Positions 24,754 through 26,413 are shown, counted from the stretch's first letter. The stretch: 64,000 bases of DNA from a virus (IMGVR_UViG_3300037423_001636:141169-205168); one strand, 5' to 3'. Numbers and translations are program-made. The notes: a model not told the origin generated them from the sequence alone.

Positions 24754-24825
24754 GCCGATTGCTTCAGCAAGCCCGCGAGTTTTGTAAACTTGAGGAAGAG
24801 AGGGCAGCACTCTCAGTCGGCTCCA
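24754..24825 (+). tRNA. tRNA-Thr(TGT)
   Basis: Acceptor GCCGATT/AGTCGGC. Anticodon arm CGAGT-TTTGTAA-ACTTG. T arm GAGAG-GGCAGCA-CTCTC. Encoded CCA. The D region is short. Confidence 0.45.
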
Positions 24826-24831
24826 TTCTAT

Positions 24832-24920
24832 GGTGGTAGAGGCAGAAGTAACTCAAAGCACCGCCCTGTGAAGGCGGGTCCGCAAGGACATAGCGAGTGT
24901 GAGACTCGTCTACCACCCCA
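24832..24920 (+). tRNA. tRNA-His-like (GTG) with G-1 and a C73 discriminator, atypical body (long variable hairpin, weak D arm)
   Basis: Acceptor GTGGTAG/CTACCAC with an extra 5' G at position -1 and a C discriminator (the His identity set). Anticodon arm CCGCC-CTGTGAA-GGCGG. Variable hairpin GTCC-GCAA-GGAC. T arm GCGAG-TGTGAGA-CTCGT. Encoded CCA. Confidence 0.4.
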
Positions 24921-24926
24921 ATTTAT

Positions 24927-25001
24927 GGGCCTATAGTTCAATAGACAGAACCTCAGTTTGCGGAACTGACGATCCCAGTGCGAGTCTGGGTGGGCCTACC
25001 A
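24927..25001 (+). tRNA. tRNA-Arg(GCG)
   Basis: Acceptor GGGCCTA/TGGGCCT. Anticodon arm TCAGT-TTGCGGA-ACTGA. T arm CCCAG-TGCGAGT-CTGGG. Encoded CCA. Confidence 0.5.
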
Positions 25002-25029
25002 TTCTACGCTTGACTCCGGCCGCTAGGCT

Positions 25030-26079
25030 ATGCACGATAGCGCGATGAAAAAGCTCCCCAGAGCCACCGATCCACTGCTAACCCGCGACCAGTTTCGCGA
25101 GGCGGTTTTCGCGCGCGACGGGCACAAATGCGTGATTCCCGGGTGTGGCAAGCCCGCACAAGACGCTCATCACATTCTGGAGCGCAGACTATTTCCAGAT
25201 GGCGGCTATTATCTATCTAATGGAGCCTCCCTCTGCGGGCAGCACCACATCGAAGCCGAACAAACCACTCTTAGCGTAGAAACGATTCGGGAGGCGGCTG
25301 GCATTACAGCTCCCGCTCTTCCGTCTCACTTCTATCCTGACGAACGCTATGATAAATGGGGAAACGTAATCCCTCCAACTGGCCGCCGCACGAAGGGTGA
25401 GCTGTTCAGCGACGAGAGTGTCCAGAAGATTCTGGCTGCTGGCGGGGTGCTAAGTGAGTTCTCAGACTATTGTAAGTACCCACGCACTTGGCATCTTCCA
25501 TGGAGCCCCGGGGCTACGGATGATGACCGCATTCTCACTGATCTCAGTGGGCTTGAAGGCGAGGAGGTCGTAGTGACAGAGAAGATGGATGGAGAGAATA
25601 CGTCACTCTATACAGACTACTACCACGCCCGTTCGCTCGATAGCAATAGTCATCCCTCACAATCTTGGGCGCGAGCCTTTCACGCGAAGATGGGTTGGCA
25701 GATTCCAGTCGGTTGGCGCGTGTGCGCCGAGAATCTCTACGCCCGACACAGTATCGAATATACCAATCTGTCCTCCTATCTCCTCGTGTTCTCTATCTGG
25801 GATCAGACTAATCGTTGTCTCAGTTGGGATGAAACAGTAGAGTGGTGTGGCCTGCTTGATCTTAAACACGTTCCTGTTATCTACCGTGGCCCGTGGAACA
25901 AAGACAAGATTCGTGAGTGTCACCAAAAAGATTCTGAAGGATATGTTGTGAGGGTTGCTCGCTCATTCAATTTTGGAGAGTTTCGCCGAGTCGTGGGGAA
26001 GTTCGTTCGTGCTGGACACGTGCAGACCACTCACCACTGGAAGGCTCAAGCGGTAGTGCCGAATGGGCTGGTGGAATAA
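25030..26079 (+). CDS. HNH nuclease domain fused to an ATP-dependent RNA ligase (Rnl-type nucleotidyltransferase)
   Basis: The N-terminal HNH reads DGHKCVIPGCGKPAQDAHHILER...CGQHH. The ligase motif I reads VVVTEKMDGEN (KxDG). Motif IV reads EGYVVR and motif V reads VGKFVR. The gene is embedded among tRNA genes. Confidence 0.65.
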   Translation: MHDSAMKKLPRATDPLLTRDQFREAVFARDGHKCVIPGCGKPAQDAHHILERRLFPDGGYYLSNGASLCGQHHIEAEQTTLSVETIREAAGITAPALPSHFYPDERYDKWGNVIPPTGRRTKGELFSDESVQKILAAGGVLSEFSDYCKYPRTWHLPWSPGATDDDRILTDLSGLEGEEVVVTEKMDGENTSLYTDYYHARSLDSNSHPSQSWARAFHAKMGWQIPVGWRVCAENLYARHSIEYTNLSSYLLVFSIWDQTNRCLSWDETVEWCGLLDLKHVPVIYRGPWNKDKIRECHQKDSEGYVVRVARSFNFGEFRRVVGKFVRAGHVQTTHHWKAQAVVPNGLVE

Positions 26080-26085
26080 ATTTTC

Positions 26086-26162
26086 GCCTCGTTAGCTCAG
26101 CTACATAGAGCAAGCGTTTTCTAAACGCGAGGTCGGGGGTGGGATTCCCTCACGAGGCACCA
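26086..26162 (+). tRNA. tRNA-Arg(TCT)
   Basis: Perfect acceptor GCCTCGT/ACGAGGC. D stem GCTC/GAGC. Anticodon arm AGCGT-TTTCTAA-ACGCG. T arm GGGGG-TGGGATT-CCCTC. Encoded CCA. Confidence 0.65.
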
Positions 26163-26260
26163 ATTATCGACCTACGCCGCGGCGCAGCGTCAGCGCCCGT
26201 GGTATCGGTTTGTCCTGTGATGAGGCCACGACAACTATAACGCGCCAATTTTATTTTTAT

Positions 26261-26336
26261 GCGCCCTTCGGCAATTATCAGTCACCCTCGCTTCGAACGA
26301 GGATTAGTCTGGGTGGGAGTCCCAGAGGGCGCACCA
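26261..26336 (+). tRNA. tRNA-Arg(TCG)
   Basis: Perfect acceptor GCGCCCT/AGGGCGC. Anticodon arm CCTCG-CTTCGAA-CGAGG. T arm CTGGG-TGGGAGT-CCCAG. Encoded CCA. Confidence 0.6.
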
Positions 26337-26337
26337 C

Positions 26338-26413
26338 TTTCCCGTCGTCTAATCAGATAAGGCCCGGGTTTCCTAGACCCGTGAACACGGAGCATAGCCG
26401 TGCGGGAAAACCA
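26338..26413 (+). tRNA. tRNA-Arg(CCT)
   Basis: Perfect acceptor TTTCCCG/CGGGAAA. Anticodon arm CGGGT-TTCCTAG-ACCCG. T arm CACGG-AGCATAG-CCGTG. Encoded CCA. It starts 1 nt after the previous CCA. Confidence 0.55.

Follow-up and report, generated by a model that had tools for sequence, protein, structure and literature searches.

Why an RNA ligase gene should lie among arginine tRNA genes is the question raised by positions 24754 to 26413 of a 64,000-nucleotide (nt) stretch of viral DNA (IMGVR_UViG_3300037423_001636, positions 141169 to 205168), referred to here, at its full length, as the window. The segment holds an open reading frame (ORF; 25030 to 26079, plus strand) that combines an HNH nuclease with an RNA ligase, together with four tRNA-Arg genes. 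The original prediction read this arrangement as a countermeasure against a host nuclease that cuts tRNA-Arg. Our analysis points elsewhere: the protein is a member of a widespread family that joins an HNH domain to a ligase resembling RNA ligase 2 (Rnl2), and it probably has a general role in RNA sealing that is not directed at tRNA-Arg. The source is an uncultured phage without a close cultured relative; its DNA polymerase III (Pol III) alpha subunit is less than 30% identical to that of every cultured phage, and the matches of its tRNA array in cultured phages are single tRNA-Ala genes only.

The HNH-RNA ligase protein

The longest ORF runs from an ATG at 25030 and encodes 349 amino acids (aa); residue numbers below count from that codon. 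In an alignment with the homologous genes of four related uncultured phages (L007, L008, L011, and L012; ligases 73 to 77% identical), a shared start (ATG or GTG, followed by AAxAAG) falls on the ATG at 25045, which is the likely start codon and gives a 344-aa protein from a gene at 25045 to 26079 on the plus strand. The encoded protein has three parts: an HNH nuclease domain (residues 19 to 79; 25084 to 25266), a conserved linker (residues 80 to 147; 25267 to 25470), and a ligase nucleotidyltransferase domain (residues 148 to 349; 25471 to 26076).

The ligase domain matches Pfam RNA_ligase (PF09414) over residues 178 to 325 with 115.2 bits, against a gathering cutoff of 27. Motif I, EKMDGEN (residues 184 to 190; KxDGxN), contains the adenylylation lysine K185, encoded at 25582 to 25584. 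Across an alignment of 41 sequences, K185, D187, G188, and E189 of this motif are invariant, as are E234 and N235, E303, G304, and R308 (in EGYVVR), and K324 and R327 (in VGKFVR). The three motifs named in the original prediction are therefore present and invariant in the 41 homologs, and nucleotidyltransferase motifs III, IV, and V and the fold are present as well. The predicted fold and the profile are nearest to RNA ligases (Rnl2, NgrRnl, Rnl3, and REL1), and every DNA ligase scores lower. Judged by these comparisons, the protein belongs to the covalent nucleotidyltransferase superfamily of ATP-dependent polynucleotide ligases, as a member of Pfam RNA_ligase and PHROG 24030 with an Rnl2-like catalytic domain, and is not a relative of the DNA ligases; the catalytic lysine is intact, and the alignment shows all of the residues for classic three-step ligation to be present. 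The protein stops 22 residues past motif V and has no C-terminal domain.

The HNH domain was established from PHROG profiles, a profile search of the PDB, and the fold. Ten PHROG families of HNH endonucleases match within residues 14 to 117 (core, 19 to 79) at E values of 2e-6 to 8e-4, and the family profile matches the HNH domain of IscB (E = 0.004). C34, C39, H47, H48, N64, C69, and H73 are invariant in the 41-sequence alignment, and the catalytic His/Asn/His residues and the Cys/His zinc ligands are present in a beta-beta-alpha fold, whose relatives in fold searches are DNA nucleases. Pfam HNH models gave no match at E = 1 to the ligase protein, and a single-sequence search of the PDB with the same protein returned nothing. 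Taken with the PF09414 match, the PHROG matches and the invariant residues bear out the description of the ORF as an HNH nuclease joined to an Rnl-type ligase. PADLOC gave no match for the ligase protein, which is therefore not a component of a known defense system.

The linker is conserved as well, with R87, P98, Y102, K109, W110, R120, G123, L125, D128, S130, and V131 invariant and a predicted local distance difference test (pLDDT) score of at least 91 over residues 81 to 150. It is without a counterpart in ligase-only homologs, most of which begin at residue ~145 to 149. At the level of sequence, the HNH domain, linker, and ligase are thus shown to evolve as one unit. Alignment of the regions upstream of the ligase genes also revealed a cTTGACt box (25009 to 25015, plus strand) about 30 nt before the likely start, and an identical box lies 5' of the ligase gene in L007 and L008 despite the different position of that gene in their arrays. 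A generic scan for sigma-70 promoters called none for the ligase; we infer that the box is a candidate promoter.

A widespread family

The protein matches PHROG 24030 ("RNA ligase") over residues 16 to 347 (profile positions 3 to 340 of 342; E = 3.2e-129). Full-length homologs at 47 to 56% identity are found in jumbo phages, namely the Caulobacter phages CcrBL9, CcrSC, and J4, Salicola SCTP-2, Ralstonia RsoM2USA, and Acinetobacter ME3, and halovirus HGTV-1 has a homolog of 28% identity, whose record already names both an RNA ligase and an HNH endonuclease domain. More than 7,054 homologs were found in the protein database, the top 120 of which are at least 58% identical and nearly all full length. 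Homologs were confirmed in 190 viral stretches of IMG/VR and in 584 stretches of GTDB genomes, the latter figure pooling fusion and ligase-only forms and covering many bacterial phyla as well as a Methanosarcinales metagenome-assembled genome (MAG). N-terminal HNH domains are present in some jumbo-phage ligases of the Rnl2 family (Iyer et al., PMC7824862), and a role in RNA or tRNA repair is the accepted reading for HNH-fused Rnl2-type ligases (PMC7824862). The HNH-RNA ligase fusion is already recognized and very widespread, and the description of it as uncommon was wrong because it matches a large catalogued family described in jumbo phages. What the window contributes is a member of that family from an uncultured phage.

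Identity is flat across phyla, at about 50 to 60%, which suggests strong constraint, frequent transfer, or both. One homolog with 71% identity (L010, 10001 to 11038 of a stretch from a 338-kb ENA contig) stands alone among ordinary bacterial chromosomal genes, its neighbors being a TonB receptor, an ECF sigma factor, and genes of rhamnose catabolism.

The closest described systems are the HNH-Rnl2 ligases of jumbo phages (CcrBL9 gp226, ME3 gp200, and HGTV-1 gene 233), which have the same three-part architecture and the same invariant residues at 28 to 56% identity. The difference lies in the setting: in the window phage and its four relatives, the gene neighbors a Ro60-like gene and lies within a large tRNA array or at its end. 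Compared with T4 RNA ligase 2 (PDB 1s68 and 2hvq), the window protein lacks the C-terminal helical domain and has the N-terminal HNH domain and linker instead. It resembles the Rnl5 ligases of Naegleria gruberi and Deinococcus radiodurans (PDB 5cot) in having an accessory module at the N terminus, but that module is an HNH nuclease here, and in Rnl5 it is OB-like and not HNH; the profile match to NgrRnl was not significant (E ~0.6 to 0.7). T4 Pnkp and Rnl1 repair tRNA-Lys that has been cut by PrrC, and the likeness to that pair is one of general logic, a phage ligase resealing nuclease-cut tRNA; the ligase family differs, and no specificity for a target tRNA is indicated here. Long tRNA arrays of bacteria likewise have an HNH gene and an RNA ligase gene with the array (PMC8421152), but there the HNH gene is separate and the ligase is RtcB, which uses 3'-phosphate chemistry.

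Possible alternative pairings with an end-processing activity

Homologs without the HNH domain (equivalent to residues ~149 to 347; 47 to 58% identity) have a gene for an HD plus P-loop kinase protein (HD-Pnk) directly downstream at 40 of 53 loci, whereas the HNH fusion has such a neighbor at 2 of 127 loci (Fisher 3e-26). The HD-Pnk neighbor was identified by Pfam HD and AAA_33, and the ligase-only set lies within genome loci L013 to L092. In the 64-kb window there was no match to HD-Pnk. From gene content, this distribution suggests that the HNH fusion and the ligase plus HD-Pnk are alternative pairings with an end-processing activity, and the near-exclusive alternation of the two provides a concrete, testable idea about the purpose of the nuclease domain. 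A ligase/HD-Pnk cluster of this kind has been described in Runella slithyformis (Munir and Shuman 2017, as summarized in PMC6097658). The HNH-less homologs share its ligase-then-HD-Pnk gene order, in contrast to the window protein, which has the HNH domain and linker and no HD-Pnk neighbor; the Runella ligase is probably an HNH-less relative of the window ligase.

Ligases of this superfamily join 3'-OH to 5'-PO4 ends via lysine-AMP and AppN intermediates, and HNH nucleases leave 3'-OH/5'-PO4 ends. Because HNH cuts would leave the ends that the ligase needs, and because the HNH-less form is almost always accompanied by HD-Pnk and the fusion almost never, we favor a role for the HNH domain in end preparation or in substrate cutting coupled to ligation over purely selfish homing. 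The HNH domain would in that case make or prepare 3'-OH/5'-PO4 ends for the ligase. A published alternative is that the HNH domain attacks rival DNA while the ligase repairs RNA (PMC7824862).

Arginine tRNA genes and the position of the ligase

The four tRNA-Arg genes flank the ligase as claimed, all on the plus strand. Arg(GCG) (24927 to 25001; ARAGORN; Rfam, 55.2 bits) lies upstream, while Arg(TCT) (26086 to 26162; ARAGORN; Rfam, 50.5 bits) begins 6 nt past the ligase stop and is followed by Arg(TCG) (26261 to 26336) and Arg(CCT) (26338 to 26413; ARAGORN; below the Rfam threshold). Arg(TCG) is noncanonical, with a 3-bp D stem, no G18G19, and the T-loop TGGGAGT, and it was called neither by ARAGORN (default or relaxed) nor by Rfam, whose tRNA model still misses this gene and Arg(CCT) when only 371 nt are searched. 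The assignment of Arg(TCG) comes from a cloverleaf minimum-energy fold with anticodon UCG and from orthology, since the gene aligns with the ARAGORN-called Arg(TCG) of L007 and L012 with six compensatory pairs. The missing G18G19 raised the idea of a decayed pseudogene, which was rejected because the D-loop and T-loop pattern, including a Watson-Crick swap of the 19-56 pair, is common to L012 and typical of the whole array (see below).

Clustering by amino acid is a property of the entire array, which consists of about 39 tRNA genes at 15432 to 27780, all on the plus strand (ARAGORN with default and relaxed settings, Rfam, and an acceptor/T-arm/CCA scan). The array spans essentially all amino acids, and Arg is not singled out. 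A Leu block (GAG, TAG, and CAG) is followed by Glu (TTC and CTC) and then by a second Leu group (TAA and CAA), and there are further groups of four Arg and three Ser genes and pairs of Gln, Pro, and Ala. Shuffling gave an expectation of 1.6 same-amino-acid adjacencies, against 11 in the array; with Arg left out, 8 remained, against 1.4 expected (P = 3e-5). The clustering is far above chance across the whole array, and the proposal that clustered Arg genes are distinctive largely fell away, as other amino acid families are clustered equally. Nor are the nearest neighbors of the ligase confined to Arg: Thr(TGT) and His(GTG) are no more than 280 nt upstream of it, and Ser(TGA) starts 6 nt after Arg(CCT).

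The order of the array, with the Leu block followed by Thr, His, the Arg block, and Ser, is common to the window and the four relatives, but the position of the ligase is not. In L007 it lies past the whole array, after Ser(GCT) and an HNH_4 gene, and in L008 it likewise lies past the array, after Arg(CCT) and an HNH_4 gene. It is found between Arg(CCT) and four Ser genes in L011 and ~2 kb beyond Ser(TGA) in L012. The slot between Arg(GCG) and Arg(TCT), which the ligase occupies here, holds an unrelated 100-aa ORF in L007 and a 6-nt spacer in L008, where the ligase is present elsewhere although the slot is empty. Only one of the five related phages, that of the window, thus has the ligase inside the Arg block, and the trait conserved in all five is a ligase near the Arg/Ser end of the array. 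This nearness is accounted for by conservation of gene order combined with small local rearrangements.

These comparisons bear directly on the proposal that the ligase and the four Arg genes form a dedicated module, for both repair and replacement, against a colicin-D-type nuclease that cuts tRNA-Arg. The proposal draws on the presence of all four isoacceptors for the six Arg codons within 1.5 kb of the ligase, on the placement of the ligase at the Arg/Ser end in five related phages, and on the standing of phage tRNAs and RNA ligases as accepted countermeasures to tRNA-cutting defenses (PMC7824862 and PMC10264068). However, Leu, Ser, Gln, Glu, Pro, and Ala genes are clustered as tightly as those of Arg, Thr and His upstream and Ser downstream are equally close to the ligase, and the ligase sits within the Arg block only in this phage. 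At other viral loci the flanking tRNAs, where there are any, are those for Lys, His, Asn, Gln, Leu, Cys, or Met, and cellular homologs, with identities reaching 71%, occur among ordinary chromosomal genes with no tRNAs. We therefore regard an Arg-directed module as highly improbable. The RNA or tRNA repair setting of the original prediction stands, given the family reading (PMC7824862) and the presence of the gene beside the array in all four relatives; its Arg specificity does not, and the locus reveals no Arg-specific countermeasure.

The variable position of the ligase among close relatives could also indicate that the HNH domain is a homing module and that the gene is a mobile cassette that inserts between tRNA genes, its ligase being either cargo or a means to reseal the cassette's own cuts. 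The gene fits tightly, leaving 28 nt on its upstream side and 6 nt on its downstream side, at the point where L008 has its 6-nt spacer; the gene brings its own upstream box; a LAGLIDADG gene and another HNH gene are present in the same array; and the nearly flat identity (~55 to 60%) across distant phyla suggests frequent transfer. Yet residues in the HNH domain, the linker, and the ligase are invariant across phages, bacteria, and an archaeal MAG, and among the relatives the ligase is more conserved (73 to 77% identity) than its neighboring genes (45 to 66%), the opposite of what a fast-decaying selfish element would give. There is no intron or intein context at the ligase, the alternative ligase plus HD-Pnk architecture points to an enzymatic partnership, and the moves all fall within ~2 kb of one array end, so that local rearrangement of tRNA genes explains them equally well. 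A homing role thus appears quite unlikely for the HNH domain.

Beyond this clade, three or more tRNAs within 10 kb were found at 22 of 81 viral fusion loci; nine of the 81 have a tRNA within 1 kb, and tRNAs lie on both sides at two. Across these loci, the tRNA nearest to the ligase may be one for Arg, Lys, His, Asn, Gln, Leu, Cys, Met, or another amino acid. The loci of cultured phages have no tRNA within 6 kb of the ligase, with the exception of HGTV-1, in which a single tRNA-Gly lies on the opposite strand at a distance of ~7.5 kb. No partner gene is conserved in more than 11 of 94 viral loci, and the commonest neighbors are nucleotide-metabolism and DNA-ligase-like genes, each at ~10%. Since most homologs are not near tRNA arrays, the link to tRNA genes is limited to particular lineages.

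The same survey raises the possibility that the enzyme acts on DNA or RNA-DNA hybrids, at nicks, in replication or recombination, or on competitor DNA with repair of its own, and that the nearness of tRNA genes is incidental. The scarcity of tRNAs near most homologs and the two commonest classes of neighbor would fit, as would the location of the array after a helicase/primase/Pol III alpha block in the window, the DNA nucleases that are the fold relatives of the HNH domain, and the suggestion in the literature that HNH domains attack rival DNA (PMC7824862). Set against this, the ligase is nearest in fold and profile to RNA ligases, with all DNA ligases lower; the sister architecture is paired with an enzyme that heals RNA and DNA ends; and the placement next to the array and beside Ro60 recurs in the clade. 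We consider a DNA substrate unlikely.

General RNA sealing remains the reading that we prefer. The ligase would seal RNAs that are broken in the course of infection, tRNAs or other structured RNAs being the most plausible targets, and would share RNA maintenance around the array with the complete tRNA set and a Ro60-like protein. The Arg bracket would stem from the position that a ligase cassette with its own upstream box has in this lineage, between Arg(GCG) and Arg(TCT); it appears as an Arg bracket because the array already groups isoacceptors where the cassette lies. Several observations weigh against this reading. Neither 59 of the 81 viral loci nor 36 of the 42 cellular loci scanned nor the loci of cultured phages lie near tRNA arrays. 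The window protein is without the C-terminal domain on which nick sealing by T4 Rnl2 depends, and no T4 Pnkp-type kinase/phosphatase was found among the ~35 window proteins scanned (64 kb of a ~205-kb contig). A literature search found no published activity for any member of the HNH-ligase family, and the Runella ligase, according to PMC6097658, self-adenylylates but did not seal any of the DNA or RNA substrates with 3'-OH/5'-PO4 ends that were tried. The travel of the ligase, the Ro60-like protein, and a second HNH protein with the tRNA array makes this clade suited to testing whether the ligase acts on tRNAs.

The spacer between Arg(TCT) and Arg(TCG) (26163 to 26260, plus strand) is 98 nt long, compared with 92 nt in L012 (5629 to 5720) and 6 nt in L007. 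Pairwise alignment of the two long spacers, those of the window and L012, revealed the common stretches GCCGCGGCGCAGC and TATAACGCGCCA, and the long spacer may be a promoter or a small structured element.

Content of the tRNA array

ARAGORN with default settings called 18 tRNAs in the array, relaxed ARAGORN and Rfam added about 12, and a structural scan for tRNAs with all acceptor (7/7) and T-stem (5/5) pairs and an encoded CCA added six more. Nearly all of the array tRNAs have an encoded CCA end; Ser(TGA) does not. The six found by the scan alone have clean cloverleaf folds: Gly(GCC) (15432 to 15506), Ala(CGC) (15977 to 16059), Thr(GGT) (20199 to 20273), Ile(TAT) (21377 to 21467), Thr(TGT) (24754 to 24825), and His(GTG) (24832 to 24920), all on the plus strand. 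Thr(TGT), at whose first base the segment under study begins, was missed by ARAGORN and Rfam; it has 7/7 acceptor and 5/5 T-stem pairs, CCA, and a cloverleaf minimum-energy fold with anticodon UGU, and its place in the array matches that of Thr(TGT) in the relatives. His(GTG), also missed by both programs, has an encoded G-1 and a long variable arm, and His precedes Arg(GCG/ACG) in L007, L008, L011, and L012 too. Default ARAGORN also missed Pro(GGG) (18772 to 18846, plus strand) and a Met/Ile(CAT) gene with a long variable arm (20105 to 20192, plus strand). Eight tRNAs in all were missed by default ARAGORN, and Rfam at the gathering threshold missed most of them too. They were recovered by Rfam alone or by the acceptor/T-arm/CCA scan, and they stand at places consistent with the order of the relatives' arrays.

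Long variable arms, in tRNAs of 88 to 91 nt, occur in isoacceptors that normally have none: Lys(TTT) (15655 to 15745, plus strand), Ala(TGC) (17001 to 17089, plus strand), Met(CAT), Ile(TAT), and His(GTG). Lys(TTT) is just as long in L011, as is Ile(TAT) in L007. Within the array, Rfam also gave a weak match to the manA RNA motif (19839 to 20103, plus strand; 24.7 bits against a gathering threshold of 55.2; E = 0.006) that is probably not significant.

The Ser block is opened by Ser(TGA) (26420 to 26503), identified by relaxed ARAGORN and a weak Rfam clan match, and continues with Ser(GGA) (27498 to 27586) and Ser(GCT) (27686 to 27780), all on the plus strand.

A changed tRNA elbow

Position 55 in the T-loop is G in 30 of the 32 tabulated window tRNAs (for example, TGCGAGT where TTCGAAT would be usual), and the D-loops of these G55 tRNAs have AG in place of the expected GG; C56 is retained in 29. 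In Arg(TCT) and Arg(TCG), G55 G56 goes with AC in the D-loop, which amounts to a Watson-Crick swap of the 19-56 pair and is seen in L012 too. Standard tools miss many tRNAs here because the elbow is changed.

The pattern is found in 11 of 11 tRNAs of L012, while L011 is canonical in 38 of 39 and L007 and L008 are canonical. An exact 17-mer containing G55 matched 25 IMG/VR stretches (24 contigs), among which wholly or mostly G55 arrays are present in L182 (24/26), L193 (22/23), L201 (18/18), L195 (13/15), L185 (17/27), and L191 (13/19); the other contigs with the 17-mer are mixed or have a single G55 tRNA. Among 676 distinct parsed phage tRNAs, U55 occurs with a GG D-loop in 496 of 538 and G55 occurs without GG in 113 of 121, an association (Fisher 1e-80) that is uncorrected for relatedness and includes loci that were found by their G55 pattern. 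A set-wide G55 array is present at none of the 81 viral ligase loci, and the elbow change is therefore independent of the ligase. In a search for a protein common to G55 arrays and absent from canonical ones, only Ro60 recurred (four G55 loci versus one canonical locus, with short flanks).

According to a review of T-loops, the U55-G18 pair is conserved and pseudouridine 55 is the tRNA modification that is conserved most universally (PMC7912444). We found no description of a G55 or A18 elbow in the literature, including that review. Replacement of position 55 and its D-loop match in a whole tRNA set bears on tRNA recognition, on modification, and on phage-host conflict, and the elbow variant may outweigh the ligase as a lead. 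One conceivable reading is that the array is a structurally distinct tRNA pool, with G55 and an A18-type D-loop instead of the near-universal G18/U55 elbow contact, by which the phage or its nucleases tell their own tRNAs from those of the host, with the fusion cutting and resealing tRNAs and, with Ro60, maintaining the pool. The discriminating nuclease may be the HNH domain of the ligase or the HNH_4 protein, and the HNH domain of the fusion would make or trim 3'-OH/5'-PO4 RNA ends in place of HD-Pnk. We regard this scheme as improbable.

Neighboring genes

Upstream of the tRNA array lies a replication block that encodes a DnaB-like helicase, a primase, a PD-(D/E)XK nuclease, and Pol III alpha. 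The array itself is broken up by protein genes, namely a Ro60-like gene, a LAGLIDADG gene on the minus strand, the ligase gene, an ORF of 203 aa, and an HNH_4 gene at its end.

The Ro60-like RNA-binding protein (22342 to 23850, plus strand), encoded within the array 1.2 kb 5' of the ligase, has TROVE and vWA domains (Pfam TROVE, 64.8 bits against a cutoff of 23; a weak vWA_Ro60 match; phrog_850). A Ro60/TROVE gene is close to the ligase in the window, L011, and L012, and Ro60 homologs adjoin the arrays of L011, L012, L182, and L195. A TROVE protein is present in some jumbo phages (Iyer et al., PMC7824862). Rfam detected no Y-RNA-like partner of Ro60 across 14 to 28 kb of the window.

The LAGLIDADG-type homing endonuclease gene (23795 to 24700, minus strand; Pfam LAGLIDADG_3, 30.7 bits; phrog_4645 endonuclease) overlaps the end of the Ro60 ORF by 56 nt at its 3' end, and it has no match at E <= 1e-5 in L007, L008, L011, or L012. 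NCBIfam had no model matching the ligase, Ro60, or LAGLIDADG protein.

The 203-aa ORF (26545 to 27156, plus strand) interrupts the Ser block. The separate HNH_4-type protein (27820 to 28497, plus strand; Pfam HNH_4) has counterparts of 46 to 50% identity beside the ligase or the array in all four relatives (tblastn: L007, L008, L011, and L012), which would not be usual for a selfish endonuclease. PADLOC matched this HNH_4 protein weakly to PtuB (E = 1e-5). A terminator scan placed a strong terminator-like hairpin after the HNH_4 gene, at 28506 to 28525.

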